A stretch of 61,291 nt of DNA, counting the filler, from Diploschistes diacapsis (Eukaryota): the NCBI GenBank assembly GCA_023645945.1. It is 4 parts of 4 records of this genome, joined end to end, with 100 filler letters (N's around TTAATTAATTAA, not from the genome) between each part and the next. Parts side by side here need not be neighbours in the genome. Positions count along the whole stretch, not along the records: positions 15,361 to 30,611 come from JALAIB010000562.1; 3 more parts are not named here. The stretch is one strand, 5' to 3'. The notes under the pieces are model-generated. The model saw nothing but the letters and a program-made list of their open reading frames with translations, did no database searches and was not told the origin of the DNA. Made by a program: the position numbers and the translations under genes. Shown here one piece after another: positions 15,261 through 46,053 of the stretch. Each line of letters begins with the position of its first letter. Within the stretch, counting starts at the first letter, position 1.

Positions 15261-15360
15261 NNNNNNNNNNNNNNNNNNNNNNNNNNNNNNNNNNNNNNNN
15301 NNNNTTAATTAATTAANNNNNNNNNNNNNNNNNNNNNNNNNNNNNNNNNNNNNNNNNNNN
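15261..15360. other. Artificial contig linker (N44-TTAATTAATTAA-N44)
   Basis: 100-bp spacer with a six-frame stop 12-mer. Identical at three places in the window. Confidence 0.97.
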
Positions 15361-15726: not shown

Positions 15727-17140
15727 ATGTCCAGTCCACAGATGGCCACAGGGTCTCAACCGTCCTTGATCACTACAGGTCTTATTGTCGTCTCTGTGAT
15801 ATTCCCCGTTCTGTCCTTGCTTTCCATTGTCCTGCGCTTTATGGCACGGAAAAGTGCTCGCCAGGATTTCATGGCGGACGACTGGTGGATTGCGGCTGCC
15901 TGGGTAAGGCGAATGTTCCAGCGCGAAGCATCGTCCCAGAGGATTGTCTTTGACGTCAATTAGATCGCCTCGTTGTCTGTCAGTATCAACTCGTGGTACT
16001 TTGGGGCTACGACAGGCGTGAATTACTTCACGGTCGATCCGCTCAGCGGTATCGAAGATTCCCTCGAGGTAATTGAAGACCTATTGATATCTTGATACTC
16101 GTGGACACAGACTGATTGAGAAGTGTATCCTCATTTCGAGCTGCCTAATCCAAATCGCTTTGACTGTCGTCAAAATCTCTATCCTATTTTTCTACAAGAG
16201 GATTTTCTCCACGGCCAAGTTTCAAATTGTGGCATGGATCGCGATCGCGATCGTCGCCGCATGGGGCGTAATATTCTTCTTCGTGGGTCAAGAGGTCGAC
16301 GTTGAGGACAGGGCTCTGATACCAATAGCTTGTCTTGTTCGAAAGCGATCCTGTCTCGGCGTCTTGGACAGGAGAAGGCACCTTGCGATATGATGCCGTG
16401 GCACTTGGGACGGCGCAGGTTGGAACGAGCATCGCTCTTGATGTGCTGATTCTTGCTCTACCACTTCCAATGATCGCAAGTCTCCACATGAAGACGGAAA
16501 GGAAGGTCGCTATCGGGATAATATTCTGGCTTGGAGGCTTGTAAGGACGTCCTCACCTACCTTGTAAAGCCACCATTACTGAGTCTGAGTAGCTGCTGTG
16601 TTGCAGCCATTGTGCGTCTAATACTTCTGACGCAGTCTCTAGCAGAGGTCGTTGGGCAGACAAGTCAAATACGTAAGTCCCGGTTGGGATGCCGACGGCG
16701 TAACTTGAGACTGACTGGAATCGACAGACCTCGAGGCAAACAACATAATCTTCCAGATCCTTGAGCCAAATTGCTCAGTCATAGCAGCCTGCTTACCGTG
16801 CTACGGTCCACTTTTCGCCGGGGGCAGGGCAACCGAGTCTATTGTCCGCAGCGTTCGAGCCGCCATCTCTCTTGCAAGTCGTGGCTCACATACATCCGCA
16901 CAAAGTAAAACCCAACAAAGTGCGAAGGCTACAGGTTCAGGTGTAGTGATGCCAAAGCCCAACCAGAACGAATCAGAGATCGAGCTTAACGATGCTACGC
17001 CGGAGTGGCCAAGCTCCTACTCGCAGACTCGAAACTCTATCGATGGTGCCCGTTTTTCGCAGCAAACCGGTGAGGACGGGAAGCCTCTTCCAGCGAACGG
17101 AATTACGCAGACGAGGGTCTTTGATGTCACGCGAAGCTAA
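15727..17140 (+). CDS. PTH11-like (non-CFEM) GPCR-like integral membrane protein, multi-exon
   Basis: Family motifs across exons: LRFMAR...ADDW, VKISILFFYKRIF, DVLILALPLPMI, KVAIGIIFWLG, CCVAAIVRL, ILEPNCSVIAACLP, followed by a Ser-rich cytoplasmic tail. Confidence 0.85.
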
Positions 17141-18635: not shown

Positions 18636-19038
18636 AACGTAGTTCATTAGGAGATGGGTTATCCCAGAAGGTGGGCCACCGCCCTATCAAATTTTAAAAT
18701 GAAACTTTTAGCGTAATATATCTTAAAAACCTGTTGAGGATATGTTCTTGCAGCGGATGATAAAAGGAAGGAATGGCACTTTCCGTAGCAGTAATCCATT
18801 AGGGAAGAGAAACTATCTAGGTGGGAACATGCCCTTAAATACTGCGCTCGGCATTAGACTAGTCAGAACTCTCACGCCTAATTCTCAATAACTTATATAA
18901 TTAATTTATTTGATTTAATTTGTATATCTACCTACGCTTGGCGAGCAAATTTTCAGATACTTCAGGGGCACGCCAAGACGCTAAGAAATTCTTGTATATT
19001 TTCAGAAAGCACTGTAATTAATCAAGATATGATGAGAC

Positions 19039-19685
19039 TAGGCTAGCCGTCACGGTCACGGATATTAATATGGACACTATAGTATCTGTATCCGTGTCCG
19101 TGTCCGTGTTTTAAAAATTTTTAATTATAATTTCCGTGTCCGTATTTTTATTATATTATAATGTTCGTATTCCTATTCGTATTTTAAATTTTTTAATTAT
19201 AATATTCGTATTTGTTGGAAGGTATTGGGTCGGTGGTCTAGCAGTGGGATAGATTGGAAAGGAGAGAACTACTGCTAGCTAGCTATGAAGAGATTTATTT
19301 ATAGCTAGCGCGACACCCTAGCTAGTCACTTGCTACTAGGGTGGACCGACACTTGAGCCCGTACTGTCAGACAACCCGGCCTGTGCCGGGTTATCCAAAC
19401 AGTATTCGTGTTTTTATTGCCGTGTTTAATTTTTATATTTAATTCTTACTTTGATAATAATTTAATATTACAATATTCGTATTAAAAATTGGTTTATTAC
19501 GTTATCCGTATTCGTGTTTTTATTATATTCTAATATCCGTTTCCGTATCCGTAATTTAAACATTTTAATTATAATATCAGTATTCGTGTTTTTACTGCAC
19601 TATAGTATCCGTGTTAATATCCGTGTTTTAAATATTTTAATTATAGTGTCCGTGTCCGTGTCCGTGGCACGAAACGGCCAGCCTA
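19039..19685. mobile_element. Non-autonomous hAT-type element (MITE) carrying a nested solo LTR
   Basis: Terminal inverted repeats TAGGCTAGCCGT... / ...ACGGCCAGCCTA. Subterminal CCGTGT/ACACGG arrays. 8-bp target-site duplication GATGAGAC (19031-19038) / GGTGAGAC (19686-19693), one mismatch. Confidence 0.8.
19213..19401 (+). mobile_element. Solo LTR (189 bp), copy 1; orientation arbitrary
   Basis: Begins TGTTGG and ends CCAAACA. Exact 5-bp TSD GTATT on both sides (19208-19212, 19402-19406). Near-identical inverted copy at 29465-29648. Confidence 0.85.
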
Positions 19686-19793
19686 GGTGAGACGATGCTC
19701 CGGTAACATCGAGACTGCTTTTCGTGCTTTGGTTTGCCTACATCATGCTTGGCTCTTCCTCCCCCCCAAACCTTTTCCCTCGTGAGGCTCAGG

Positions 19794-20846
19794 ATGGCAG
19801 CCGAGTACAGCAAAGGACGGGATTACATCTCTTCCGCAAAGTAAGTACTGCCCCTTTCCGCGCCCCATTCGAATTCGTTGGCGCTGATTCTTGACAGATT
19901 GAATTATTTTCATTACGTGCTCAAGCAGCTCTTGCAATATACATTCCACCCTTGCATTCCTACTTCCCCTGAGCGACGACTTCGCGTGGCCGATCTTGGA
20001 ACTCAGACGGCGTACGGTTGTGTCCGTTTCATTGCGCGGTGTAACTGACCCACCACAAAGTATCTGGCCCATTGACGTTGCCTTAAGCTACGGTTCATCA
20101 GTCGAGCTCGATGCTTTCGACATTTCGGATACTTTCTTTCCGCCACCTGATTGGTTGCCGAGCAATGTGCGCTTACGCTTACACGACATTTACGACCCTT
20201 TTCCAAGCCACCTGCATGGCTTATTCGATGTGGTGCACCTGCGACTCTTTTTGACTCTCTCCAAAGTGGAGGTGGCAAAGATCCTAGAACATGCATCTCA
20301 ACTGCTGGGTTAGCACTGCGTAGCTCTTTTCTCTGGCTAGGTGCTGACAGCGATGGAATGCCGCTAACGTAAACACGTTTTGCAGCGCCCGGAGGGTTTG
20401 TCCAATGGACGGAACACGATAAAACCGCGCTTTCCGTCATCAGCTCTTCGGCATCGGACTCAGCTCATGATCAAGCAGCAGAAGCGGCCCATCGATTCGT
20501 GGAAATCCAGCAGCACACCCCATTTCCCGGTTATGACAGTGCCTGGGCTGCTTCGCTCGCACACACCATGTCCGAATGTGGCCTTGAAATCATGGCTGAT
20601 CATCGGGTGAGCGTTCCTTCGGCTTTGGTGCCTCAGTTTAGCGAGTTGCACTTGCTCTCGCTCGACGACGTGCCATCAGGACTAAGCACTACCATCGACG
20701 AATTCCGGGACTCGGGGGGGCTGACGAAGCTGAGGAACGAATTTGCCGCAGGGTTTGGGATCGTGGACGGATTCGTCTGCGTAGTCGGACGGAAAATTAA
20801 AGGACTGGGATCGAATGTCACCATGCCACAATCGATGGATTGCTGA
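19794..20846 (+). CDS. Class I SAM-dependent methyltransferase-fold protein of the fungal secondary-metabolism type, four exons
   Basis: Spliced translation MAAEYSKGRDYISSAKLNYFHY...FHPCIP...RVADLGTQTAIWPID...LDAFDIS...FPPPDWLPSNV...HDIYDPFP...FDVVHLR...LLAPGGFVQWTE...CVVGRK. Introns have GT..AG ends and branch sites. Confidence 0.85.
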
Positions 20847-21152
20847 GCATCTGTGAATTGCAGCTGATGAACATGAATACTCTAGAAGTAATGGCCAGAC
20901 TTTTTGTCAAGGGACTGGGTGTACGAAGATAAACACGTAAAACCATTCTTAGTTAAGTCTGAACATTAGCCATCCTTAATGTATTTGAAATTCCTTAATC
21001 ATTAATCTGAAGTACTGACTAACATAGAGCCTGCATGTGACGAAACAAGGAATGTAGCAAAGGCCTGATGTGTATACAAGGCAGTATCTGAGTGTGGTAG
21101 TCCTTTACGCAGTCACTTGCCTGTTTAAGAAAATGTACCTCGCACCCAATTC

Positions 21153-22820
21153 TCACGAAGATAACACTATGGGGCTCTTGTTCTTCAAAAGCATCTGATC
21201 CCATGGCCAAGGAAAGAGAAATTCATGGATGATGTAGTTCTTTGGGCGGCCTTGTCCAGGCACAAACTTGAAGTCGTAGTTCCGTAGCAACTTCACCATC
21301 GTCATCTTCACAATTAAGCTCGCAAAAAATCGGCCCGGACATGCGGACTTTCCGTAACCGAATCCCAGATTCGAAGGCTCGACTTGAGAGAACTGGTGCC
21401 CGTCTTCTTGTCCGTGTGTCTGACGTAGCCTGTAAGAACGTAATCCATCAAACGATGCAGGATCAGGCGTATGTGCAGGATCATTTTCGATGGTCATGGT
21501 CGGTAGACAAACGTAAGTGCCACGGGGTATTTGCAGACCTTCCGAGCCAGGGCTTGAGAAGGTATAGGGCTCTTTGAAGAGCCGCTTGAGTCCTGTTATC
21601 GTCGGAGGACTCAACCTCTGGGATTCCCTTATGAAAGAATCCAGCGCCTTAAGATCGTTGTAGGATGAGTAGCTCCAACCATGACCGCCGATGGCATCAA
21701 GTTCTGCAGAAAGCTCTTGAAGGTAAATTGGATTCGAGGTCAGATCGTAGAGCACGTTGACTACCCGCAGTAGGGTTGTGTGCACAGAGGCAAGTGCAAG
21801 CAGCACCTCTACGTGAGCAAGTGCCCCTGGATTGCGGTCCTTCCCTTTAGCAGCCTCAACAAGCCAAGATAGAACATTGAAATCTGCTGGATCATCACCA
21901 GGACTCCACTTTCCAGCGTCACTGAGGTCGATCAGCTCCTGAATCTTCGGGCCAAGCAACATCTTAGCCTTCCGTAGATATCCAAATCCAGACCACCAGG
22001 AAGGGAGCAACCGACTGATAAAAGGGTGCATCCATGGTGGAAACATGCGAAGTACAACAATAGTCTTGAAAACTGTACGATTAGTTTAGCGTAGTTCTGC
22101 ATGTCAGGGAGAAGGCACATCTTCTTACGGTTCTCAGTGTAATTGACCGAAATGTCGAGCCAGACAGGATCACGACAGAAAGCAGTGCCCACAAGTGCTC
22201 GGGCAGACAATTGTGCAATGATCTTGCCCAGGACTTTGAACGGCTGAAATCTCGTCCAAGTGTCTCCGACTCGTGGAAAATACTTCTCGAAGGCATCCTC
22301 GAATTCCAGTTGCAAATCAGGTAGCAGTGTGCCCAGTCGAGGCGTCAATCTTCGTTGAACTATGACATGATGCATCCGGTTTTCCAGGATAACGTCCAGT
22401 CCTGTATACGGCCCCAGCAAGTCATGTTCCAGCGCTCCGTGCGGGCTGGCAATTGTCGCCGGTAGCCCGGAAAGCTCCTCCAGCGTCGACAGTGGGAGTA
22501 CAACGACATCAGCATTGCCTCGGGAGAATTTGAATGCCCGGCCTTTGAACTCCGCGGATGTCAGTACATCGAGCCTTGCCTATACTAGCATGGGTTCGTC
22601 GAGATACCTTTATATAACCTTGACCGAGCACCTCTAAGCCGTTGAAGGCAAAAATTAGATTCAAAATATACCTTGGTGTCAATCTTGATGGACAGCCGAC
22701 AAGAGGGAAGTCTGGCAATTTTCGCAATTCCTTTCTCGTGATAAGCAGATCACCTGCGTGATACACAAGCAAGAGCAAAGAAAGACCCCATAGGGGCAAA
22801 GCCAGCGATTCTCCCAACAT
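21153..22820 (-). CDS. Cytochrome P450 monooxygenase of the ent-kaurene-oxidase-like terpene-tailoring type, three exons
   Basis: N-terminal membrane anchor, I-helix LASVHTT, ExxR (ESQR), FDGLR, heme motif FGYGKSACPGRFFA. ORF segments 22509-22820, 21932-22420 and 21153-22046. Confidence 0.93.
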
Positions 22821-23789
22821 TGCACTCTAAAACGGATTGCTCAAGAATTGGGAGTGGAGTTCGAATCTCCTTGACTCGAGAAGTCTCAAGTACCAGTCAA
22901 CCTTCTGTTCCGTAGGGAAAGTCCAGCATCTCACTGCAAGCCCTTCTCCGGTGATGTTCGCCTGGAAAAGAAGGTGTTGCTATTCAAGGCGCAGCCATTG
23001 CAGGCAATACAACGTACGTGTCGTCGCTTCATTAAATCGAGCAAGTCTGCGATCCTTGCAATCCTCAATTGCCTGCTGTGCCGCTCGTGTCCGAAGCAAA
23101 AGCTCGTGCATCGAGCCAGCTGCAGTCGGAACCCTTCCGTGCCCACCGTGCCAGTCACGGCAGTGCACATGCAGCGCACATGCAGCGCACTGACGAGGCA
23201 ATCAATGATTGCCGGCATAGAGGCACCAGCATCGCAATGCCGAAGGGGGGTGGGGATTGTAGGCTTGTGCTCGGTTTCCAGAGAATCGCGCATTGGTCGA
23301 CGTCTTTGTCGTGTGGTCCGCCTGCGTTTAGGTGGCCGGGCTGCGTAACCAATCAGAACGGCGATTCCTTTAGCAGCAACTTTCGACCGAATACTACGGT
23401 GATTTGAGTACTGGAGAATGGCGCGTGGGTGGCGGAACTGTTAGATCTCCTACCCTTCAGGTAAACCGTTGGGACAAGCGGGATAAGCCGTCGAAGGGAA
23501 TGAAAGGCTCGACGACGCGGGCCGTCAGATTAGGCAATTTTTTGTTGCCAGATGCACGGAGTACGACATAAGCTTCTGATCGACATTAAGCCCTCGATGA
23601 TCGCGTCTTGCTCAGGCAGATTTGGGTGGGCAGGTACTTTCCTTTTTATACACCTGCGGTCACTTTCCTACAAGGAGAATGTTCATGCCGCTACAGACTC
23701 ACTATCCCCGAAGGTTTCGTACAAGCTTGAGCATTGTTTGCTCACATATTTTCAAATATCTCACAGAATCTTTTTACTCCCAGTAGAGG

Positions 23790-25702
23790 ATGTCGTCCTC
23801 CCACGAGAAGATGACAGAACACACCAACCATACGGTGCTGAACGCACAGGGAGAGCATGGGTTGGGAGGAAATACGTCGAACGGGCCTGTCGAACGTGAT
23901 GTGGTAACTGGCGACATCGATCCTGAAGACGAAGTGAAGGGCGTCAAACTTCTAATCTTGCACATTGGACTGTGTCTCTGCACCTTCCTTGTCGGCTTGG
24001 TATGGGAGTTTCTCAAGAATGTCGTACGGACGAGAATTGCTGACCATGGACGCAGGACTTTACGATCCTTGCCACCGCTGTGCCAGTGATAACGTCTGCT
24101 TTCAATTCAATCAACGATGTCGGGTGGTACGGCGGCGCTTTCTATATTGCACTGTCAGGAACCGACTAACTCATCCTCTAAGTCTGCGACTGACCACATC
24201 TCAGATGCGCAAGCCAGCCTCTGATTGGAAAAGCCTTCACCCTATTTCCGAAGAAGGCTATTTACCTAGGCTCTGTGGCGGCTTTTGAAATCGGGAGTCT
24301 GGTATGCGCATTGGCACCAAATTCCCATGCTCTCATCGTCGGCAGAGCTGTGACCGGCCTGGGTGCATCTGGAATCCTTGGTGGCAGCCTGATTCTCCTG
24401 ACGGTAGTTATTCCGCTTCACAAGCGCGCGGTCTATACTGGAACACTACAATCCATGTTTGCCGTCGCGAGCATTGTTGGGCCTCTGATAGGCGGTGCTC
24501 TGACTCAAAATGTCACTTGGCGGTGGTGCTTCTACGTCAACCTGCCTATTGGAGGCTTTTCAGCCGCGGTCATCCAGGTATTCTGCAACATAAAACGATC
24601 ACCGACTGGAAACATGTCGTCCGCTCAAAAAATCAGAAGCTTGGATGGACTTGGATTCGTATTATTTGCTGGGGCTATCATCATGCTTCTGCTTGGTCTT
24701 CAATGGGGTGGGACGGCATTCGCCTGGAGCTCTTCGGTTATAGTTGGGCTGTTCATTGGAGCCGGAGTAACCTTCCTGGTGTTCGCAGGATGGCAGGTGT
24801 ATATGGGCGACTCTGCTCTAGTGCCATCGAACCTTTTCACTCACCGTAACGTGGTGCTGATATTATGTGCGGGTTTCCTCTCAAACGGACCCTTCCAGAT
24901 TCTTGTCTACTGGCTCCCTATCTGGTTTCAGGCCGTTTTGGGGGTTACTCCTACAGCAAGCGGTGTTAGATACTTGCCAACTGTGATATCGGATGTTCTG
25001 GCGGCCTTTGTCGGTGGCGGACTCGCCATGAAGCTCGGCATGTGGAACCCACTCCTCCTCTTTGGAAATGCAGCAATCGCTCTAGGGGCTGGATTGCTGT
25101 CCACGATATACCCAGGAGTACCGGACGGACATTGGATTGGTTTCCAGATCTTCATCGGGGTTGGCTACTCTCTTGTAACTACTATGGTAAGCTTCCTTTT
25201 ACCTGATGAAACTTTAAAAGCACGCTCACTGACCCAATCACCAAATAAGGCTCACTTGGGCATGCAAGCAACGCTGCCAGTAGCTCTCGTTCCTGTAGGG
25301 ACTTCTACCCTGTTAGCAGTCATTTCAAGTGGCTGTGCCGTATTTCTAGCAGTCGGTCAGGCGGTCTTCCAGATGCGACTTGTAGAAAATCTCTCCGCAG
25401 TGGTATCGGCGAACATGGTCAATGCGGTATTAGGCATTGGGGCAACAGAAATACGGTCGATTGTCGATCAGGCAGATTTGGCGGCTGTTGTCAATGCATA
25501 TGGTAAAGCCGTGACTGAGGTTTTCGTGAGTTTCCTGACGATTTGGCTTTCCTTGCTCGCTAATCGATGCAAGTATATTCCAGCTGCAGCCCCTGTTCTT
25601 GCATTTTTGTGCGTATGCTTCACTGCCTGGATCTCCGTGAAGAAATCGGAAGGAAAGGACTTGGAGAGCAAGAACGGACAAAGCACAATCGAGAAGGTAT
25701 GA
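23790..25702 (+). CDS. MFS drug:H+ antiporter (DHA2, 14-TMS) efflux pump, multi-exon
   Basis: [51 protein letters not shown]...[27 protein letters not shown]. Confidence 0.93.
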
Positions 25703-26334
25703 ACCGCCAAGCATTGACATCGAAGAGGTTGAGAGGCCCAGTCAGAGAGGCATAATTCGTAGTAAATTTCAAAGTAGTTTTGGGGTGCATCTAGACCAAA
25801 TCCTGACACTCTCCTTGTTCAGGCGTACTGTATATTCATCTCTGAACGACCCTCTCCGCCACTTCTTTCAATTTGAGTGTGGACACATCCGTGAAGTCGC
25901 CCTCTGCACAGCCCTGCTCTCCTCCCTGCCCCTCCACCTGTTCCTACTTTGTTCCCTTCTCTGCACCCTTTCCTCGTCTTTCGACCTGCCAACCTTCCTC
26001 GTCTTTCGACCTGCCAACGAATCGTGCGACAACCGCATCCACCCCCCTTTCTCCTGATTTTTCATCAACCTCAGCTTTGTCCACAGCCCAAGCTCTGTCA
26101 GGCAGTGCTTGCCACTCTTTATGCTCTTTCTTAATCCGAGTAAGGCACAGGTCAGCTCTGTTTTCAGGAGGACAACTTGAAATTGGAAACCATAGCACAG
26201 AAAAGCTCTTCGATTGGCTTACAAACATCAATTCTCTGGTCAGTCAACTGTAAACAACTGAGTCCCTGAGCTTAGATCGGTCCATACCAAAGTTACATAG
26301 TTTCACCCGTCCTCAAGGACAGAGAATCTTCCAA

Positions 26335-29280
26335 ATGGATATCTTCAACTCGTCGCACACTCCCTTCGACATCGTCCAGGACATCAGCAAACTTGCCGAA
26401 GATGACGATGCTTTCAGCCAGTTTGGGTCCTTTAGTAGTTCCATCTACGACACGGCTTGGCTCTCAATGGTTCGTCGCGAAGGAGACGGGCAAGAGCAGC
26501 TCCATTGGATCTTCGACGGCTGCTTTGAGTTCATTCTGGAAGCCCAGCAGGATGATGGCACCTGGCCCAGCTATGCTTCACCGGTCGACGGAATACTCAA
26601 CACCTTAGCTTCTCTGCTTGCTCTTGCTACTCGAATGAAATTGAGCATGTCGGACAAAGACACGAAAATGGCGTTGCAGCACCGTATCGATCGAGCTCAA
26701 AATGGTCTGAGTTCTATCCTGCAAAGGTGGAAAGTCAGGGAGGCCATCCACGTCGGGTTTGAGATATTGATACCCAGCCTCCTTCGTCAGCTTGAGGGGT
26801 TCAGAGTCGTTTTCCGGTTTTCCGGTTTCCAAGAACTTATGCAACTGCACGACAAGAAAATGAAAAGGTTCAAATCTTCCATGGTGTATTCAGCCAAACA
26901 GACGACGCTTTTGCACTCTTTGGAGGCGCTCGTTGGGTTGATTGAGTTTGAGAGAGTGAGCCATCACTGCAACGAGAAAACCGGTATTCTTGGCTCTCCT
27001 TCCTCAACAGCAGCCTATTTCATCAACAATCCACGGGATATCCGAGCAGAGAAGTATCTTAGATCGGTGCTTGTCGCAAACAAGAAGTCCTTCGCAGTCC
27101 CCAGCGCCTACCCTACATGCATCTTTGAGTTATCCTGGGCTTTGTCAACGTTAGTCCCTAACTTACCAAGCCCCACGCATCTGGAGACTGCAGGCCTCGG
27201 ACGCATCTCGTCAGCACTGTCTACTTTATTTGAGAAGCAAAATGGGCTTGTTGGTTTTGCGCCCGGAGTGTTGGAAGATGCCGATGATACAGCGCGTGTC
27301 ATTTTGGCTCTTCGAAGCTTGGGATTGGAGGTAGATCCTAAACCAATGATCGAGATGTTCGAGTCCGAAACGTACTTCAAGACTTATCTGTTGGAGCAGA
27401 ACGCGAGCTTCAGCACAAATTGTAACGTTCTCTTAGCTTTGCTGAGTCTGCCATCTCCCGATACGCATCTCTCCCAGATCGAAAAAGCTTTAGCATTTCT
27501 TCTTGAGAGATGGGAAACGCGCACAATCACTGACAAATGGAATATTTCTTCTTATTATTCTTTGATGCTAATCAGCGAAGCTTTGGTAGGCGTTCTCAAG
27601 CGCCGGGACGACGGCCACTTGCAAAAACTCTCGGCAGCTTTTATGGAAGATCGTGTGCCTGCAGCAATATGTCAAATACTCTCATATATTCTGGCGAATC
27701 AGCATGAAGACTGTTCCTGGGCACATTCCCAAGAAATCACGGCATACTGCGTCATGGCGCTCTCCCATCACGCCTCTCTTCCCTGGAGTCTAGAGCTTGG
27801 ACGACAAGTAGCTGCTCGTCTTGAAGGAGGCCAGAGGTACATTAAAGAGCATCAGTCGGAGTCGAAGTCCTCCGACGGTAACTATCTCTGGATTGAAAAA
27901 ACCACGTACGCTTCTTCTCTCTTGCACAACGTCTATTGCACAACCGCCATCCATGTTTTAGTTCCCCAAAAAACTTGGAAACAACAAGCCCAAGAGCTGT
28001 TCTGCCCTCGAACTTCGGATTTGGCAGCGACGCAGCATCTGACCTCTGCATTGCCCATGTTCAGCGAGCCGCCTCTCCTCTCGCTAGAGCTGGCTTTGCT
28101 TGAGGCCAAAATATTGGCGACGCGTCTGCAGAGAGCTAGGCATACCATCGTCACTAAAGAGTGGATGAAAATGAAAGAGGGTAAGTATCTGAAATACATT
28201 CCGTTTATTTGGGTGGCTTGTAATCAGCGGAATGGCAACAACCTCTCTTCCAATGCTGTTTGGGATATGGTGACGCTATCACTGTTCATCTATCAAATGG
28301 ACGAGCTCATGGAGTCCATCGTGGGGCAGTTCGATTCACACTCACTGCAGAAGCTGGCGTCGAAGCTGGCGCAGGAGTGCGGCTTCAATTTTGAAGAAGA
28401 AGTACGTGATGATGCGCTGCAGGTGCTGCACCTCCATCATGAGGATGTGGTAAACGTCAACGACAAACGACGAGCCGCGGCCGCATCGACAACTGAAGAG
28501 GTGCAAGCGGAGCCGGCCACATTCGAGGTAGTCACCAAGATCTTGAGTGGGTTTATCCAGCATGTGCTCCAGCATCCCGCAGTCCTTCAATCGCCGTTGC
28601 GCGTCCAGCGGGAACTGGCAACCGAAGTTTACAATTTCCTGATCGCTCATGTCAATCATTCTCTTGACGGCAAGTCTCTGCGGAAAAGTTCGAAGAAGCT
28701 CAAGCTTGGAGCTGACTCGGACTGGTCCGCTCCGAGCTCGCCGTTCGCGCTTTCACAAACTAGTTACTTCAAGTGGGTTCACACAACCGCGTCGGACGAC
28801 ACAAGCTGCCCCTTCGCATTCAAATTCTTCCTCTGTCTAATCGGCCAGTCGACGGAATCGTACCTCGGGGCTCCTCAAGAGAAGTACTACAGCCAGAGCC
28901 TCGTCAGGCATCTTTCCACAATGTGCCGACAGTACAACGATTACGGTTCGGCCAAGCGAGACGCCGAGGAAAGCAATTTGAACAGCCTGGACTTCCCAGA
29001 TTTTCAATCCGGCGCCGGAAGTGCAGCGCGTCAAGCAGATGGAGGCTGTGACTCCCAGTCAATGAAACAAGAGCTTATGGCAATCGCGGAGTTCGAGCGA
29101 TCGTGCATGCAACTAGCGCTGCAGAACTTAAGGCAGGTAGCTTCCAGTGCAGAGACTGTCGAGGCCTTAGAGACGTATATTGATGTGACAGACTTATTCG
29201 GCCAAATTTATGTACAGGCTGACCTTTCTAGTCGTAGTTTTTTTGTGAGAACTGAAGAGGATACATGTGCTCCTGGATAA
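26335..29280 (+). CDS. Bifunctional class II/class I diterpene synthase (fungal copalyl diphosphate/ent-kaurene synthase-like), 981 aa
   Basis: SIYDTAW, QW motifs (QQDDGTW, QHEDCSW), LHSLEA, SPSSTAAY, class II DxDD (DADD, aa 315-318), DKWN, WIEK, class I DELME (aa 656-660) and NDYGSAKRD (aa 868-876). Single uninterrupted ORF. Confidence 0.93.
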   Translation: MDIFNSSHTPFDIVQDISKLAEDDDAFSQFGSFSSSIYDTAWLSMVRREGDGQEQLHWIFDGCFEFILEAQQDDGTWPSYASPVDGILNTLASLLALATRMKLSMSDKDTKMALQHRIDRAQNGLSSILQRWKVREAIHVGFEILIPSLLRQLEGFRVVFRFSGFQELMQLHDKKMKRFKSSMVYSAKQTTLLHSLEALVGLIEFERVSHHCNEKTGILGSPSSTAAYFINNPRDIRAEKYLRSVLVANKKSFAVPSAYPTCIFELSWALSTLVPNLPSPTHLETAGLGRISSALSTLFEKQNGLVGFAPGVLEDADDTARVILALRSLGLEVDPKPMIEMFESETYFKTYLLEQNASFSTNCNVLLALLSLPSPDTHLSQIEKALAFLLERWETRTITDKWNISSYYSLMLISEALVGVLKRRDDGHLQKLSAAFMEDRVPAAICQILSYILANQHEDCSWAHSQEITAYCVMALSHHASLPWSLELGRQVAARLEGGQRYIKEHQSESKSSDGNYLWIEKTTYASSLLHNVYCTTAIHVLVPQKTWKQQAQELFCPRTSDLAATQHLTSALPMFSEPPLLSLELALLEAKILATRLQRARHTIVTKEWMKMKEGKYLKYIPFIWVACNQRNGNNLSSNAVWDMVTLSLFIYQMDELMESIVGQFDSHSLQKLASKLAQECGFNFEEEVRDDALQVLHLHHEDVVNVNDKRRAAAASTTEEVQAEPATFEVVTKILSGFIQHVLQHPAVLQSPLRVQRELATEVYNFLIAHVNHSLDGKSLRKSSKKLKLGADSDWSAPSSPFALSQTSYFKWVHTTASDDTSCPFAFKFFLCLIGQSTESYLGAPQEKYYSQSLVRHLSTMCRQYNDYGSAKRDAEESNLNSLDFPDFQSGAGSAARQADGGCDSQSMKQELMAIAEFERSCMQLALQNLRQVASSAETVEALETYIDVTDLFGQIYVQADLSSRSFFVRTEEDTCAPG

Positions 29281-29464
29281 TTTTATCTGAGGAAGGTTTC
29301 TCCGCACGGCCTGAATTGTAAAAGCAAACCTTTTTCCCTTTGGGGACATGCTAGTGTGAAACACTTTGTGTTTAGATCGATTGTTAATAATGTTATTATG
29401 TCGAGCTAAATAGCGTTTAGGTATATTTTATAATAACTTTCATCTCCGCTGTTAGGTATATAAG

Positions 29465-29648
29465 TGTTTGATAAACCGGCACAGGCCGGGTTGTCTGACA
29501 GTGCGGGCTCAAGTGTCGGTCCACCCTAGTAGCAAGTGACTAGCTAGGGTGTCGCGCTAGCTATAAATCTCTTCATAGCTAGCTAGCAGTAGTTCTTTCC
29601 TTTTCAATCAATCCCACTGCTAGACCACCGACCCAATACCTTCCAACA
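29465..29648 (-). mobile_element. Solo LTR, copy 2, inverted relative to copy 1
   Basis: Reverse complement of 19213-19401 with few differences. TG...CA ends and exact 5-bp TSD ATAAG (29460-29464, 29649-29653). Confidence 0.85.
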
Positions 29649-29970
29649 ATAAGTCCAAATATCCTCTGACTAGGAGGGTGCGCATCCTTTTAGCTCAATA
29701 ATACCCGCCATAATAACGTAGATCTTTAGTCTATATAACAACGATAACGTATTTCTGCTAATATTTATTTTAGTTTCTTTATTTAGGTCTCGAATTTTTG
29801 TTTTTAAAATAATTTACATAGTTTAGATCCCGTTATTTAAATAAACGATATTCGTTTTATTCATCTTATCTTTTGCGTAGGCGAGCTAAAAATTGGTTTA
29901 ATTGTTCGAAATCTTTTTTTCGTATTTTATTTTTAACGTTAAATAATAGTGTCAGATTATTAACCTCTAT

Positions 29971-30190
29971 GGGTTAGTGTCTGACTAACAACTAGTGGAC
30001 CTGGAAGATCTAGGAGGTTCTATACTGGTCTAGAACCTAATAGAACATTATCAAGGGTCCTACTAGCAATGATCGATCGTTCTACTAGTAGCCAGGTGCT
30101 ACTAGGAAGGATGTTTGGATTATTGGATCATTATTGGATTAATGATCCAATAATATTTGGACCAGGGGTCCAATAAATGTTGGATTACTT
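29971..30190 (+). repeat. Degenerate repeat fragment, copy 2, within an AT-rich TE-relic zone running to the contig end
   Basis: Collinear similarity to 18451-18635. Internal TTGGAT/ATCCAA repeats. A 20-bp tandem ATCTTCATCTCCATCATACT follows at 30361-30400. Confidence 0.55.
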
Positions 30191-30611: not shown

Positions 30612-30711
30612 NNNNNNNNNNNNNNNNNNNNNNNNNNNNNNNNNNNNNNNNNNNNTTAATTAATTAANNNNNNNNNNNNNNNNNNNNNNNNNNNNNNNNN
30701 NNNNNNNNNNN
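30612..30711. other. Artificial contig linker
   Basis: N44-TTAATTAATTAA-N44. Confidence 0.97.
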
Positions 30712-33700
30712 CCACCAGGCGGCGATAAAGCTCCGCATACCTCACTCCGCCGCCGCCCCCCAGCGCGCTCGACCCGCCGGCCCCGCTGCCCAGCATCTCG
30801 TCCAAGCACGCCAGCACCACGCCCTTCAGCTCCGCCCTCGCCCTCCTCTCCGCCGCGCCCATGCCCTCCGTCAGCAGCGCCATGTCGATCAGCCCGGTGC
30901 GCTGGTCGGTCGCGGCCTGCTTCAGCGCGGCGCCGATCAGGCGCACCGCCTCGTCGACGTCCGCGACCTGCACCTCCTGGCTCAGTCGCATCTTGGCGTG
31001 CGCTTCGGCCAGCCGGATCATGGACTCGAGCTGCCGCGTGGTGGCGGTGATGCGGCGCTCCGAGGAGCGCATGTCGGAGCCGAGGGCGCGCATGCTGACG
31101 TAGGCGCTCACGAGGGCGGAGGAGGCGGCGGCCGTGAGTTTGGGATGGAGCGTTTCGCGGGCGTAGGTCAGGTAGGAGGTTAAGAATTCGAGGGGCTGGA
31201 TGCAAAAGGGGGGACAGTCAGTGGCATGTGCTTTTTCGTAGTGGGGGAGGTGTTGGGCCTTGATGGAAGGAGGAATGGGGGAAAGAGAAAGCGAATGGGA
31301 ATGATGGGTTAAAGGTGCGCCAGGCAAAAGGCTGGCTGCAACGTACCAGAATCTCCTCGCTGCTTCCCGTCTCCATTCTGTCGTCCAGGTACATGCCGAC
31401 CAGATGCTTTGCCAGCCTTCTGTCATTCTGCTCGTCTACCCGGTCCAGCACAAGATACACCAGATCAAATCTAGACAACAGCGTCGGCGGCAAGTCGATA
31501 TTCTGTGGCACCGGCAGGTTCGGGTTATACTTGCTCCCGATTGGATTCGCACTGGCAAGGATACTCGTCCGCGCATTGAGCGTGGTGATAATCCCAGCCT
31601 TGGCAATGGACACGGTCTGCTGCTCCATAACCTCATGCAGTACGCTTCGCGTCGAGTCGGACATCTTGTCGAACTCGTCGATACAGCAGATTCCCCCGTC
31701 GCTCAGCACCAGCGCGCCGGATTCGAGCACGAGCTGCCGCGTCTCCGGGTCACGCGTCACGTACGCCGTCAGGCCGACGGCCGAGGAGCCTTTGCCGGAC
31801 GTGTAGACGCCTCTGGGCGCGATGCGGTGCACGTAGGACAGGAGCTGGGACTTGGCAGTTGAGGGGTCGCCACATAATAATATGTTGATATCGCCTCTGT
31901 ACTTGGGCGAGCCGCCCTTCTGGAAGGTTTTGTTCGTGCCACCGAACATTTGTAGCAAAATGCCTTTCTTGACGTCGTCCATCTCATAGATGCCCGGCGC
32001 CAGGGAGCGGGCTAGAAGCTCGTACACATCTGGCCTGGCGGCGGTGGCGCGGATCTTGGCTTCTTCCTCTTCGGTAAATTTGCGGATTTGCTGCACATCC
32101 CCCGCTATCTGCTCCGAGAGCTCTTGCTCGATGGTGCTGACGTCGATACCGAGGCGCTTCTTATCCACTTTTTGGATGTGCAGGACGTCGATGTATGTCT
32201 TGAAGAGGTTCTTGATCGTGCGCTGCCGGGGGTTGATCCTTACCGGATTGCTCCTAAATATCCCCGTCACCTCGATACGATCGCCGGCCTTGCACACGTC
32301 GACGAGTTCCTCGTATGCGCAGAGGGACACTGAGTGAGGCGTCTGTCCATCGGGGACGTTGTCAGGGGTTTCCTGCAGCTTGATGATTTGCTTGTCTGCG
32401 AACTGACAGCGGTTGTGCACAATCTGCATGCTATTCTTCGACTGACAGGTGCGGCGGGGACAGACGGTTGGTTCAGCGATCTTGCCACGGTCGAGAGGGA
32501 CGTTGATGGCATGGTTGCAGACGGAGCATTGGAAGAAGGCTAAAGAAGTGTTAAATGGGGTGCAAGAGATATACCGAAGATGGACTTACCAACTTTCATA
32601 TCCGGAATGATAGGGGTTGTGCGAATAACGAGGCCTTTAATGCTGACCATCTTGTCCATATCTGAAGTAGATTAGCATTAGGTTATCATACATTTGTTGT
32701 AGCGAGATACCATTCGGATTTAGGTCCCGCATATTGATGCTCCCATCTAGCCCGAACGGCTTGGTCTTGTAAACACGCGTCTCGACCTCCTGAATCAGAT
32801 CCGGTACATCGTCAGCTTGAGCAGCAGCATCCGCCTGGGCGTTTGATTCTGAGCTTGGAACAGCAGGTACGGAACTTGAGCGTTGCTGCTGATTCTGTCT
32901 CCTCTCTGTTTTTATCCTATTCATTTCCTCTTCCGCTATGTCAATCATTAGATCCTTAATAGCTTGGTCCATAATCGGGATGATCTCATGCGGATACGCC
33001 TGCAACTGATGCCAGAGCTTAACCGTTGAAGGATAGCACTTCAGGTTTCGGACGTCCAGGTTGAAGCCTGTAAGCCCCATATGCAGCATATTTCTTAACA
33101 TTTCGAGGTACTCTTTTTCATTCGCCCCGCTCTCTGGATCCGAGGTTTCCTCCTCTATTGCGCCCTCTGCCCACATACGATATTTCCTCTGGTACCCAAG
33201 CAGAAAGTCCTTGAATTTTGCAATCGTATCTTGTAGCGATATATTTGTTCCCCAGATGGTCCTCGTAGATGAACCGCCCATTGCATCAGCCTCCGAGGTG
33301 TTCGGGTCCATGTTCGAAAACGTCGCGGCATCCGAGTTCGAGTTCCCATCTCTTACAGGCAAGCCATTCTCATCCACAAACATCCTTCGACGACGGCCCG
33401 ACGACGCACTGAAGATATCAGAATGGATGTCGCTCCGCCGTGAGTTGTTCAGACCCGAAGCGCCAGGCGCAGAAGACCTTGGTGTACGGGCAAACAGTCC
33501 GCTGCTGGGTTGATCCGAGGGACGATGGCCATTAGTAGCGACGGCTCGTGTGGGACTCGAGCTCGACACGTATCTGATGGGCGATGATTCTGTTCATGCT
33601 TTAGCTACTTTTTTTGAATGCGCCTTGATTATACGAACCGCCCGGTTGGGGACCCCGCCCGCGAGGTGTCGACTCATCATCCGCAACGCTCGATGCTTTT

Positions 33701-33915
33701 ATTCTTGCGCCTCCTGCACTTGCAGGCGTTGCATTGGCAGACGTGGATTCGAAGAAAATTGGGGAGGACATGGGTACATTCGAGCTAGTCCGCTGCTGCT
33801 GTGGTGTGCGCTGGGCAGCAGCGGGTGTGCCAGTTTGTTGTTGGGCTGTGCGTGATCGCGCAGGCGTGCCCGATACTGAGCTTCGCTTCGACCTATGTGA
33901 AACTGGCGACGACAT
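30712..33915 (-). CDS. MCM4: DNA replication licensing factor MCM4 (CDC54), multi-exon; 3' end cut by the contig edge
   Basis: Ser/Pro-rich N-terminus, [69 protein letters not shown] arginine finger, [17 protein letters not shown]. Confidence 0.96.
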
Positions 33916-34439
33916 ACTGGCTGTGAAGGTTAGATGATGTTGTCTATCTGCCAGTAATTGAAGTGGGATGAAGGTAGGGAAGCGAACGCGACCCGGCGCG
34001 AAAGGCTCGCGTACATTAGTCTTGGCGTGCGCTGCTAGATTTCCTGTATATGTTGACTACCATTGTACTTTGCTAGATTCCAGTATATATCATTCCTTTA
34101 CAGAATCTAGTTTGTCATTCCCGTCCCTTCATAATTCGAACTCTTCCCTAGACGACGATTTCCCGATTTCGCTAGTGTGTGCTACGAAGCTTATAGCGGT
34201 TGTAACATTAGCCAGTTGGTCTTGCCAATAGTATGGTCCCTTCGAGCCAACCACCTGATCAAGACATACAAACCTCCTAGTCCCCCTTTTCGCCTGCTTT
34301 ATATAGTCAAACTCTGAGCTTGCTTCATCCCCGTGTAGGCTTTACTGGAAATCTTGAGAGAATTCGGTAACGACATCTCAAAACTCCAATACTATCAACC
34401 CCATATCGTACTACCATCCTAGGCCCTGAGCAGCATCAT

Positions 34440-36283
34440 GCACCACGCATGTCTCTTACTCCTCATCTTCCGTGCGCGTTCTCTCGCCATGCTGTTGTCC
34501 ATTTCTTTGGCGAACACATTCAGACTGTAGCCTACTGGAAACCATATAGCGATCTCGCCACCGTCTTCGGAGGGACTTGAAGCCGGTGAGTCCCTTGCAT
34601 CTCAGGAGGCAATTGTCCGATTACAGCCAAACATCGAACTTGAAGTCGCGTATCAATGAATTGGTTTCCTATCCGCCATCTGTTAGGAATAAGCTCGCCG
34701 TTATTCATAAGATGTAGCAGATCCACCTCGGGCCAGGAATCGCATCTTGTTTCCGGGCGGGGTGTAGCAAGTGTAGCCATGTTCCCCTCAGAGCTGGCAT
34801 GTCGCGGACCAAAGAAGGCCAAGTTCTGTTGAACACATCGGACACATAATAAGAACAGCGAGGGCGTAATTCCAGCCGGGAGGGTCCTTCTCCTTTATAG
34901 ATCCTATATTCCTGAAGACTCAGCTCGATATCAATTATCGATAGCTGTAAACTAGGCCGGTGGGGACAGATATCCTTAAGTGCAGTGCAGCTGCCTCGTA
35001 CGAATTTGCGGTCTTTGGAGATAGTGTTCATGTAAGTAGAGGAGCCCCCTCTTGATAAACAACTCTAAATTGTTCGTGCAATCCATTATCGATCCAATGT
35101 GTAAAGCGGTGACTCCTCTACCTGAAGTTTGCGTAGATGTTGAAAATTTAACGCAACGCTTTGATACTCTGCGAACAACATATCAAACCAGCCATACTTC
35201 CTCCTCTGGCCCTTCCGTAAAGAAATTGGGGCTGTATCCCTTACTTACACCCGCTCGACGAAACACCCTCCTCTCGCCCCATTCATCTGCATAATCCTCA
35301 TCTGTTGCGGGGACCTGCTCGAGCAACAGCATGGCGCTCGTCCCAGCTTCAAGACATTACAGATTGGCTTCCACTCCCTATGGTACCACTATTTGCTCTT
35401 GCCTTGTCTTGATCGTGTGTCTGGCTTGATTTTCCTCGCTGCCGCTAGTTGCCAGCTGGGTATTAGGAATAGTGTAGTCAAGCTGCCCCAGAATTTCTTG
35501 CTTGAGCGTCTCGTAACTGAGTAGCTTTCCGCTCGTCATGTCCCGCGCGTGTACATCTTTGTCGATAACGGGCGCGAAAGTCGTATCTGCCCTCGTTCTT
35601 TTTGCCTTCCGTATCCTGTCCCTTTCCAGCTGTGAAGCTTTGGGCTGCGTTGCTTCCGCCACCAGCCCATTGTACCGTCTTCCATTCCACTCTCTCGCTT
35701 CTCGCCGAGATGAATCGTCGTATCCTGCCTTTGGCTCTCACAGCCTTCACGGACGCTCCGCGCTTCACCCGTTCTAATGCATCATCTCCCTTCCTCGTGA
35801 TTTCCATGGCTCATGCCCATACCTAAACAGCACTTCTAGTAGCGGAAAAATAACGAGGCTTCACCGAACCCCTCACCCAGCGCAATTTATTTAGTCTTCG
35901 TCCGAAGCGGTAGCTTGCCCAGCTCCAACCCGGCGCCAGGTCCCTTGGTGTTCTTTCCACGTCCCACGCATGCACGAAAGCCCACGCTCCATACTGGATC
36001 AGCAGCGAAGCTACCCCCCCCACAGATGCCGTTCGGGCCCCGGTTCCACGACGGCCGCGCTGTGTATGCCATGGAGGGTCTGGCGGACACGCACACGCGC
36101 CTGGGCGAGCTCGAGCCGAGCGCGGTGTGGCTGGAGAAGGCGGCGCACGACGCATGGGACCCGTGGAGGGGCGATGACGCGACGGTGCTCATTTTCGATA
36201 AGTTGGATCCTCTGCTGCGGAGGTGTGGGAGGGCGGAGGACGCGGATTGGTACTGGGGAGTGGTTTGTGCCGGCTTGTTTTGA
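34440..36283 (+). pseudogene. Possible disrupted gene; the last segment resembles a TPR-like helical C-terminus
   Basis: Only 35915-36283 (AVYAMEGLA...LGELEPSAVWLEKA...FDKL) looks protein-like. Upstream frames are broken by stops. The 5' boundary is a guess. Confidence 0.25.
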
Positions 36284-36658
36284 GGTCTGGGGAAATCCGG
36301 GACGGCTCAAGTGAGACTGGGGCTGGTTAATGAGATATGACTTTATGTTTTAATTATACGTAATAGTTATTGGTTTATTGCTTATAGGCATACCACACTA
36401 ACACTGAGCCCTCTTCTATCTTTCGTTTACTATATGACCCATAAACTTTCCGCGCCTAGGTACAACGAGTGAACGAGAATCGGAGTGTGTGAGAATGAGA
36501 GAGCGGAGGCTTTGCGGTTCGAAGCCTTATTGGAGCAAGAGGAGAGTTGTCAAAAGCCGCTTTTCAACGGAAATTGCAGAAAAGATATGAAAAGTAATAA
36601 ATGTATTTCCAAATACATGCACGCCACACTACACATCGCCCTTACACACGGTATGTCT

Positions 36659-37784
36659 TATTCTGCCTATTGTAAAATTGTGTAACATATTTAGTGGCGC
36701 CCTAGTGTGCATTCTGTTTAGTTCATTGTGGCTCTGTTAGGTACTTAGATCTCTATATAATTTTTATATAAATGTATGTTATTTATAGAAATACGTAGAA
36801 TTATATAGAATTAAAAATAAAATGAATTAAATTTAATGATTATTATGGTTATAAAAATTATATCGCAATAAAAAATAGATATTAAAATATTAAAAGATAT
36901 TTAAAATATTTTAAAAGTAGTTTAAAAGCGTGTTTTTAAGCTTTTTATAATCTTCTTTATACCGTATTTCTTCTTTTTCGTTTATTATATTTTTTTTTAT
37001 TTTATTATTACGTCGTTTACGTTTTTACGAATCGCGATAATTATATTATAAATAACGCGATCTTGCGTTATCTTTTTTTTTTTTATATTAATATTAAGAG
37101 TAATAAATCTCGATTCGATATCGTCGTTACGTTAATAACGGTAGCGATATTACGTAATATTTTTAAACGTTTTATTAAACGTTTAAAAATTGTTTACGTA
37201 TAATTAAAACGCGTTAAAATCTATTACGATTATCCGTAAAATATCCGCGACGATAAAGAAACGCGTTTTTCACGTTAGAAAATCCGTAAAAAAATTATAA
37301 AACCTTCCCGCAGCAGGTAGCGGCGGTAAAGGGAAACAAGAGCGAACGGGCGCGGCGGGCGCGGCGAACGCGGCGAGAGCAGGCGAGGTAAAAACGATAG
37401 AAGGAACGGAAAAAAGAACGAAAGAAAGAACGACATCTCTACGATCTAAAATAACGACGAAAATATTATAAAATATACGGTCTTTAAGATCCAGTTCGTC
37501 GTTATTATCGATATCAACGATCACGTTAAACGTAACCGTATCGGCGATAAGGGGCGTAAGGCGAATAAATAAAAAAATATTCATTATATTTAAAAAATAA
37601 TTAAAAAGATAAAATCAAAAATAATAAAAAAAGTATATAAATCGCGTAAAAAGTAAATAAATATAATTAAAAAAAGGAATAATTCCATAAGTACTTATAG
37701 CTGCAGACAAATTTGAGTGATTAAGAAAGTATTTATAGAATTATGGTATTCATCTTGTAATTTATGTGTATAGTAGGCAGAATA
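36659..37784. mobile_element. RIP-mutated transposon relic with imperfect terminal inverted repeats
   Basis: Very AT-rich, TpA-rich, depleted of CpA/TpG but retaining CpG. Bounded by TATTCTGCCTATTGTA (36659-36674) and TATAGTAGGCAGAATA (37769-37784), a 14/16 inverted match. Confidence 0.6.
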
Positions 37785-38431
37785 GCACTTGCCTTGCGAT
37801 GGGACAGTAGCAAAAAATGGGCATGTAAAAGTCTGCTCGCAGCTGCACGGGGAAACCTTAACTGGTTTCATTAATCGAATATTAACGGATTAATCTTGAT
37901 TTATTGAATCAAATATATACAGAAACTGCCATAAATAGTAGGGAAAAATAATAAAACTTTTGTCCCAAGTTTTATTTAAAAATTTATATGAAAACAGCTT
38001 AAAGCATATATAGAATTATTCAGTTTATTGGTCCTATTGATCGCCCGATTAATCGTTCAAAGGAGAGTAGGATCTGAGAGATTGTAACTTTGCCTAAACA
38101 AATCTCCCGTTACTAAAATTACCCACGCTGGAAAAGTCGAAGGAGTATCACTAGTCTAGTGTAATCTTTTTGGTCAGAATTGCATGAAGCTTCCTCACAA
38201 AACTTCTGCGCATCTATGAAAAGCAGATGCTAGACTTAGCAGCACTAATCTGGATATTTTCAATATCATCATTATAAGCTCGTGTAGGGATTTACTGCCT
38301 CCTGCAACTCATGATTGCACCGTGTAGAAAGCACGCAGTGAATGACCCAATCCTGGTTGGTAGGTCGTGGGAGAGAGGCTTTGCCAAGCTCAGCCTGACC
38401 GGGCCAGTCCATCCATCCTCAGCTCTTTACC

Positions 38432-45953: not shown

Positions 45954-46053
45954 NNNNNNNNNNNNNNNNNNNNNNNNNNNNNNNNNNNNNNNNNNNNTTA
46001 ATTAATTAANNNNNNNNNNNNNNNNNNNNNNNNNNNNNNNNNNNNNNNNNNNN
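45954..46053. other. Artificial contig linker
   Basis: N44-TTAATTAATTAA-N44. Confidence 0.97.

Follow-up and report, generated by a model that had tools for sequence, protein, structure and literature searches.

The window analyzed here, 61,291 nucleotides (nt) from the Diploschistes diacapsis assembly GCA_023645945.1, contains at 19794-29280 a real and intact four-gene cluster, probably for a labdane-related diterpenoid. The window consists of four contigs of about 15.25 kb each, with N linkers between them (15261-15360, 30612-30711 and 45954-46053); two genes separated by a linker are therefore not neighbors. The cluster lies on the contig at 15361-30611 (15,251 nt). Its bounds are the start codon of a methyltransferase-fold (MT-fold) gene at 19794 and the stop codon of a diterpene synthase gene at 29280. 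The four genes are as follows.

19794-20846, + strand: class I MT-fold protein, 289 amino acids (aa), 4 exons.
22820-21153, - strand (exons 22820-22608, 22549-22129 and 22072-21153): cytochrome P450 of CYP649A type, 517 aa, Pfam p450.
23790-25702, + strand: major facilitator superfamily (MFS) transporter, 564 aa, 5 exons, Pfam MFS_1 (E 6.6e-24).
26335-29280, + strand: intronless gene for a bifunctional class II/class I labdane-related diterpene synthase of 981 aa.

All four frames are stop-free after splicing, with GT..AG introns; the acceptor of P450 intron 1 is unusual (GAG). The MT-fold and P450 genes are convergent, and the P450 and MFS genes are divergent, with 969 bp between them. A sequence-only reading of this DNA had described four adjacent and apparently intact genes, a divergently transcribed P450-MFS pair and transposable element (TE) relics on both sides, and each of these features is confirmed. 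The TpA/ApT ratio is 0.51-0.66 in the four genes, which is no signature of repeat-induced point mutation (RIP); the LTR-like repeats that flank them, at 2.0-2.1, do carry the signature. Of 3 runs listed, one contains this DNA and is labeled lichen metagenome. A contig from it spans 19659-30084 with 0 differences at a depth of 87.5, although that run may be the source of the window rather than an independent sample. No gene for a geranylgeranyl diphosphate (GGPP) synthase, regulator, glutathione S-transferase (GST) or second P450 was found on the 15.25-kb contig (Pfam; 32/32 intergenic and flanking frames empty), an absence that is local only. The earlier statement that the contig holds neither a GGPP synthase nor a transcription factor is correct to that extent. 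No tRNA genes were found.

The synthase has the sequence features of a complete bifunctional enzyme. Its class II motif is DADD, at residues 315-318 (DxDD), and its class I motifs are DELME at 656-660 and an NSE/DTE-type motif at 868-879 (NDYGS); these catalytic motifs are also complete in close homologues. DxDD, DExxE and NSE/DTE are given as the signatures of fungal bifunctional synthases (Fischer 2015, PMC4617483). Pfam gave no match for the synthase. A sequence search of the PDB matched a copalyl diphosphate synthase at E 1.8e-108, and the AF2 model (pLDDT 81.6, pTM 0.83) has the predicted three-domain alpha-beta-gamma fold. The model aligns over its full length with plant three-domain bifunctional synthases and weakly with the class I enzyme LrdC (E 2.3e-3), and its best fold match is the class II domain of 9q3i, a Penicillium copalyl diphosphate synthase. 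The database version of this protein (P0001) corresponds to residues 1-947 of 981, without a conserved C-terminal helix motif that is present in the open frame.

Homologues of the synthase were taken as the best 120 of 125 matches listed, with 8000 candidates scored. Among the matches listed, the nearest named relative is Icmadophila MMC33_001551 (50-51% identity), followed by Teloschistales (43-45%) and then by Dothideomycetes and Aspergillus, the nearest thus being lichen-forming fungi. Identity is 39.7% to An18g02710 of A. niger and 40.7% to the T. reesei synthase. A tree was built from the window protein plus 61 of these homologues, picked mostly for bearing a name; in it, Icmadophila is the sister of the window synthase (support 0.97), and the clade of A. 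niger An18g02710 and T. reesei is sister to a larger group that contains it (1.0). Horizontal transfer or differential loss would fit two features of the trees, the sister relation of Teloschistales to Pleosporales synthases and the placement of the window P450 with Aspergillus.

The P450 ties the cluster to a known family. It has the heme Cys at 456 and ExxR at 361, and shares 62.7% identity with Icmadophila MMC33_001553 and 58.9%, over 511 aligned residues, with A. nidulans AN3253 (= CYP649A1). In P450 nomenclature, more than 55% identity denotes the same subfamily; as judged by sequence, the window P450 and AN3253 belong to one CYP subfamily, CYP649A. In the P450 tree the window protein falls inside a grouping with the Aspergillus AN3253 clade (support 0.93). 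AN3253 (XP_660857) adjoins the synthase XP_660856, which is the A. nidulans_a of Fischer and, by numbering, AN3252. A search of the open-access literature found no paper on CYP649 function.

The grouping of the four genes is conserved, since it recurs in an unrelated metagenome contig. In a comparison set of 25 metagenome loci with a related synthase, one locus, L001, has all four genes (P450 57%, MT 42%, MFS 56% and synthase 45% identity). They are adjacent there as well, with only the convergent P450-MT pair flipped, and both P450 introns lie at matching codons. The sequence-only reading had proposed a check for conserved four-gene synteny, and L001 shows such conservation at 42-57% identity. 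The flanks of L001 (7 kb after and 2.6 kb before the genes) are mostly AT-rich and RIP-like; 20/20 tested frames had no Pfam match, and neither a PTH11 match nor any other recognizable gene was found in them. The divergent promoters of the window and L001 have 9-10-mers in common, which were seen without a chance control and are not used as evidence.

The other loci depart further from this arrangement. L018 (7617-16596) is a related cluster with a canonical-looking methyltransferase: besides two P450s, one of them at 47%, and a synthase (35%), it holds a more distant MT whose motif I is rich in glycine; L017 bears an MT nearly identical to that of L018. L002 (778-12968) is another variant, with PTH11, MFS (47%), an alpha/beta hydrolase and a synthase (45%); no P450 was matched in the 10 kb to each side. 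L003 likewise has PTH11, MFS and synthase together. In most of the remaining loci the synthase is more distant and the P450s match at 25-36%; several loci are too short to be informative. A different cluster type, with a synthase at 37-38% and two upstream P450s (25-36%), is seen in L005, L006, L008-L010, L012-L014 and L025; L011 shows one P450. Linkage is also evident among database homologues. With the window's own rows left out and the P450 homologues taken as the best 120 of 254, 13 of the 119 synthase homologues listed are on a contig of exactly equal size to that of one of 119 P450 homologues. Four synthase-P450 pairs were checked and found to be 1-3 accession numbers apart, with the Lecanora pair 4 locus tags apart. 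Two database proteins, P0035 (A. sclerotiicarbonarius, MFS) and P0072 (Cudoniella, P450), are annotated as fusions to a synthase; these are probably merged gene models, in which adjacency is shown. The window MFS protein is 56% identical to its L001 orthologue and 58.7% identical to the MFS portion of P0035, and it is likely an exporter or self-protection pump.

The distinctive part of the cluster is its MT-fold protein, a member of a Gln-motif clade linked to CYP649-type P450s. Motif I of this protein reads D-L-G-T-Q-T-A, with Gln52 at the usual Gly, and so departs from the canonical D-x-G-x-G-x-G; Lys16 stands at the usual Arg position. A profile search brought out a distinct clade of the window protein and 13 database proteins; its support is 1.0 in a tree whose 37 sequences are homologues of at least 240 aa and 12 shorter close matches. 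Motif I is visible in the alignment for 40 of 151 MT homologues, and at its second glycine position these have Gly in 36, Thr in 1 and Gln in 3, all three Gln proteins being clade members. Overall, Gln is present in 5/5 clade members in which the motif is visible (window, L001, P0264, P0270 and P0271), against Gly in 36/37 outside the clade. Likewise, the N-terminal Arg is replaced by Lys in all four visible clade members, the window and L001 included, and is Arg in 23/23 visible others. Because the Gln change is kept across 42-53% identity, we regard it as fixed rather than as decay.

Pfam gave no match for single MT exons, and a PDB sequence search with the orthologue P0264 (Clohesyomyces) alone gave nothing below E 0.5. 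P0264 is full length and 52% identical to the window protein, and its model, from which the fold of the window protein is predicted, has a complete class I Rossmann-like MT fold (pLDDT 95; 3mgg Z 20.2, rmsd 2.9, 236 aligned). JHAMT, a terpenoid-acid methyltransferase, is among the nearest solved structures (E 3.4e-6; rank 4 by fold). The acidic residues after strands 2 and 3 are retained; these we take to be binders of the adenosine part of S-adenosylmethionine (SAM). Among the matches listed, 5/13 members of the clade are on a contig of equal size to that of a P450 homologue. Outside the clade none of six MT homologues matches a P450 contig in size (by eye), and one shares a 2.1-Mb contig with a synthase match.

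The reading that we favor, and consider reasonably probable, is that these genes form, in a fungus from a lichen sample, a minimal intact cluster for an oxidized labdane-related diterpenoid, made by the following pathway. GGPP would be supplied by a synthase elsewhere in the genome. As its motif and fold suggest, the class II site (DADD) would cyclize GGPP to copalyl diphosphate, quite probably of normal stereochemistry, and the class I site (DELME and NDYGS) would then ionize copalyl diphosphate to give a tricyclic diene. The CYP649A enzyme, whose family is shown and whose reaction is predicted, would convert the hydrocarbon to an alcohol or acid, probably through several oxidations, and the MT-fold protein would act on the product. 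For that protein, O-methylation of an acid or hydroxyl is plausible, if a little short of probable; a non-methylating or binding role is possible at a clearly lower level, and the absence of any pathway role is unlikely. The MFS transporter would export the product and protect the producer. By analogy with related isopimaranes, the final compound would probably be an antimicrobial or defensive metabolite.

A pimarane or isopimarane skeleton for the diene is marginally the more probable outcome, because of the products reported for Aspergillus synthases and the pbc cluster. AfCPS-PS, AoCPS-PS, AnCPS-PS and NfCPS-PS are reported to give isopimaradienes (Lin 2026, PMC13644022, citing Xu 2017). 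PbcA, to judge by its downstream products, gives an isopimarane skeleton, and the pbc cluster, with one P450, gives multiply oxidized isopimaranes (Lin 2026, PMC13644022). The product of A. niger AnCPS-PS is given, second-hand, as sandaracopimaradiene. DELME is also found in the A. oryzae synthase row of Table 1 in Fischer 2015 (PMC4617483).

A number of points weigh against this reading. The contig ends 1.3 kb past the synthase, and a GST, second P450 or regulator could lie beyond. No gibberellin, aphidicolin or pbc synthase is identifiable in the synthase tree, and an identity of 39.7% to An18g02710 is too low to settle the product. Kauranes or aphidicolanes are made by other fungal synthases, and one and the same product came from enzymes only 34-39% identical (Sato 2024). 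The link from AnCPS-PS to An18g02710 is indirect: we take the two to be the same because Fischer 2015 lists one full-length A. niger synthase. As for the MT-fold protein, its SAM loop is non-canonical, P0264 scores 24.1 bits against a Pfam cut-off of 27 that 3/3 homologues outside the clade pass, and 8/13 clade members have no contig match to a P450 among the matches listed.

Outside the four genes, the same contig carries a further intact gene and several repeats.

15727-17140, + strand: PTH11-like (fungal rhodopsin-domain) membrane protein, 381 aa, 6 exons, intact.
19038-19687, strand not assigned: AT-rich repeat resembling a miniature inverted-repeat transposable element (MITE), with short terminal inverted repeats and internal short repeats.
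19213-19401, + strand: solo-LTR-like insertion (LTR, long terminal repeat), left copy, 189 bp, nested in the MITE-like repeat, with ends TG...CA and a 5-bp target duplication of its own.
29465-29648, - strand: solo-LTR-like copy, right, 184 bp, 94.7% identical, inverted, with a different 5-bp target duplication.

The PTH11-like gene, which the sequence-only reading had passed over, matches PF20684 in 2 exons (E 9e-10 and 5e-10) and is separated from the MT-fold gene by 2.65 kb of TE relics; it is a possible fifth member of the cluster. A crude hydropathy count gives 5 segments for this protein and 11 for the MFS protein, too rough for a subfamily call. PTH11-like genes recur near fungal diterpene synthases, and in the comparison loci PTH11 lies near the synthase in L002, L003 and L019, with matches that are weak (26-34%) and at the level of the generic family. 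Further MITE-like copies occur in the window at 49720-49793 and 60887-61095, and the summed contig depth of this repeat (12,744, against 87.5 over the genes) points to many genomic copies. On the other three contigs (1486-11014, 30659-49014 and 51476-60217) the genes that Pfam identifies are ordinary ones: a C2H2 zinc finger, cyanase, GH47 mannosidase, MCM subunit, Sel1-repeat protein, DBP10 helicase, YVC1 channel, MATE transporter, DUF202 and RPA subunit.

Two other readings overlap with the favored one. In the first, the cluster is the same, and the clade of its MT-fold protein would have remodeled the cofactor pocket on the methionine side. The protein would then be a tailoring enzyme that does not methylate (performing a rearrangement, hydrolysis or ring closure), or would bind the product or confer resistance as a partner of CYP649. 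The clade-wide Gln and Lys substitutions and the persistence of Gln across divergent members suggest as much, and SpnF, an MT-fold enzyme that does not methylate, is among the fold matches of the P0264 model. The retained acidic residues on the adenosine side, the complete class I fold of the orthologue model and the proximity of JHAMT argue instead for a methyltransferase. SABATH carboxyl methyltransferases are active without this motif-I Gly. A fungal labdane methyl ester has, moreover, been attributed, speculatively, to the P450-MT fusion LabdC. We hold the non-methylating reading as a tentative possibility. A little more doubtful is the idea that the four genes are the visible part of a larger pathway, with a second P450, a GST and a regulator beyond the contig or elsewhere and the PTH11-like gene as fifth member. 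The early end of the contig leaves space for it, the PTH11-like gene is intact and close to the MT-fold gene, and published relatives have 2-3 P450s, a GST and PTH11 (Fischer 2015, PMC4617483). L001 argues the other way, with the same four genes set in AT-rich, RIP-like DNA in which nothing else was recognized, as do the PTH11 matches of the other loci, which are weak and generic.

That the cluster makes an ent-kaurane or gibberellin-like compound, such as a hormone mimic or kauranoic acid ester, is improbable. Database names of homologues include 'ent-kaurene synthase' and 'ent-kaurene oxidase', labels that are probably automatic. The synthase itself has HVGFEI and PGVLEDADDTAR, as in A. nidulans_a and the saprotroph clade (by eye), whereas the Fusarium, Phaeosphaeria and Sphaceloma rows of Table 1 in Fischer 2015 (PMC4617483) have NHIGVE and APR..DVDDTAK (by eye). 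There is, besides, one P450 and no GGPP synthase here, against 4 P450s and a GGPP synthase in F. fujikuroi (Fischer 2015, PMC4617483).

The flanking repeats raise the question of mobility, since the four genes are exactly what the two inverted copies (about 95% identical) enclose, and since Lecanoromycetes, Dothideomycetes and Eurotiomycetes are intermingled in the synthase and P450 trees. It is nevertheless very improbable that a 10.4-kb mobile element, with the ~190-bp inverted repeats as its termini, carries the cluster as cargo. TG...CA ends with a target duplication of their own are the anatomy of a solo LTR. Each copy has these ends and a separate 5-bp target duplication, with none common to the outer ends, and the left copy sits inside the MITE, halves of which lie directly on both sides. 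No junction skipping the whole unit is listed among the metagenome-run contigs, and the ~190-bp repeat is not common to L001 (blastn). We therefore rejected the mobile-element reading on the separate target duplications: the ~190-bp inverted repeats are two independent solo-LTR-like insertions, not element ends. A 10,426-nt run contig had resembled a repeat-to-repeat unit; it maps to 19659-30084, and the resemblance is a coincidence. Recombination between the inverted LTR-like copies could invert the four-gene block.

Fungal labdane-related diterpenoids include antibiotics and phytotoxins, and few clusters have been tied to products. Uncharacterized terpene clusters are common in fungal genomes and this cluster family has been mapped already, so that the cluster itself will not surprise a specialist. 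The novelty here lies in two things, a minimal four-gene set that occurs repeatedly and a Gln-motif MT clade with a link to CYP649-type P450s. The four-gene version, with an intronless synthase, both active-site motifs intact and conservation in two distant fungi, is the cheapest entry to the chemistry of the AN3252 family, which is spread over Lecanoromycetes, Dothideomycetes and Eurotiomycetes, and an entry also to the way in which lichen fungi make diterpenoids. Because Gln has become fixed in place of Gly, whether this MT-fold clade still methylates can be put to a sharp test. In its strongest form, which we rate as rather unlikely, the proposal is that this set of four is by itself a complete, minimal route to an undescribed diterpenoid of lichen fungi, and that its MT-fold protein is the first member of a dedicated clade that has lost the canonical SAM loop and acts, without methylating, on CYP649 products. 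If that is true, expression of the four-gene set would reveal what chemistry the orphan AN3252 family performs, together with a new activity of the MT fold.

Among known systems, the gibberellin (Fusarium fujikuroi) and aphidicolin (Phoma betae) clusters resemble the window cluster in synthase architecture and in a broad P450 group to which the window P450 also belongs. They differ, as described, in having a dedicated GGPP synthase and 2-4 P450s, and the gibberellin synthases have other motif strings; on the contig of the window cluster neither a GGPP synthase nor three or more P450s nor gibberellin-clade synthase motifs were found. The A. nidulans pbc (sphaeropsidin/isopimarane) cluster (AN1592-AN1599) is alike in its bifunctional synthase, single P450, methyltransferase-like pbcF and oxidized isopimarane products (PMC3323652; PMC13644022). 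It is different in its GGPP synthase, HMG-CoA reductase, GST-domain protein, short-chain dehydrogenase/reductase (SDR) and Zn2Cys6 transcription factor, and in having no MFS. The contig has no GGPP synthase, HMG-CoA reductase, SDR or Zn2Cys6 regulator, and pbc genes are not among the listed close homologues of the window genes. The sequence-only reading had cited this A. nidulans cluster, which itself has a methyltransferase-like gene and one P450; its description of the cluster as an ent-pimaradiene pathway has been overtaken, the products now being reported as isopimaranes (PMC13644022). The Penicillium/Talaromyces prenyltransferase-CPS chimeras (8v0f and 9q3i; CPS, copalyl diphosphate synthase) supply the nearest solved class II domain (36% identity, target-normalized TM 0.84), and in the labd cluster P450s are paired with a methyltransferase domain (PMC10744899). 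In these systems, in contrast, the third domain is a prenyltransferase rather than a class I cyclase, and the products are bicyclic labdanes (PMC10744899).

The closest precedents lack a GGPP synthase. That absence had been taken as unusual, a view that is not supported by the published survey, in which a GGPP synthase lies beside only 19/56 fungal diterpene synthases and a GGPP synthase-less cluster of like organization is described from A. niger, T. reesei, C. globosum and A. nidulans (Fischer 2015, PMC4617483). The lists for A. niger and T. reesei give a hydrolase, methyltransferase, PTH11, GST, synthase and P450s (Fischer 2015 supplement, PMC4617483), and that for C. globosum gives P450s, PTH11, MFS, GST and synthase, with best matches that include A. 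nidulans XP_660857-660861 (PMC4617483). AN3252-AN3257 and the C. globosum cluster are like the window cluster in a bifunctional synthase, a CYP649A1-type P450 (58.9%), an MFS, a PTH11-like gene and the lack of a GGPP synthase (Fischer 2015, PMC4617483; Inglis 2013, PMC3689640), the MFS and PTH11 likeness being at the level of protein class. The class II and class I motif strings of A. nidulans_a (XP_660856) are close to those of the window synthase. These clusters differ in having 2-3 P450s, a GST (C. globosum table) and no methyltransferase in their gene lists; AN3252 has DALME, with the class I site scored as lost by Fischer, where the window synthase has DELME. AN3252-AN3255 are jointly up-regulated in an A. 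nidulans sclB deletion (PMC6078315). Overexpression of a putative regulator nearby did not activate the AN3252 cluster, and the family has been known since 2012 (Bromann 2012, PMC3323652). Its product was still given as undetermined in 2023 (bioRxiv 10.1101/2023.10.20.563295), and our search of the open-access literature, which is not proof of absence, found no characterized product for an AN3252-type cluster. The An18g02710 and T. reesei clusters (Fischer 2015 supplement 4), also without a GGPP synthase, are alike in synthase, P450, SAM-methyltransferase-like gene and PTH11, and different in an extra alpha/beta hydrolase, a GST and a second P450, with no MFS in the list.

The window cluster links its synthase to an AN3253-type P450, has no GGPP synthase on its 15.25-kb contig and includes both an MFS and a SAM-methyltransferase-like gene, these two by protein class only. 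The sequence-only reading was upheld in seeing a conserved labdane-related diterpenoid cluster, as motifs, fold and recurrence in L001 attest; its view that the gene set matched nothing known is not supported, given the family described by Fischer 2015 and CYP649A. Because the GST and second P450 were not found on the contig, we file it as a reduced variant rather than a full member. By sequence comparison, then, the window cluster is a reduced variant of the GGPP synthase-less AN3252/An18g02710-type family and not unprecedented, and its gene set unites the MFS and CYP649 of the C. globosum/A. nidulans type with a methyltransferase-like gene as in the A. niger/T. reesei type.

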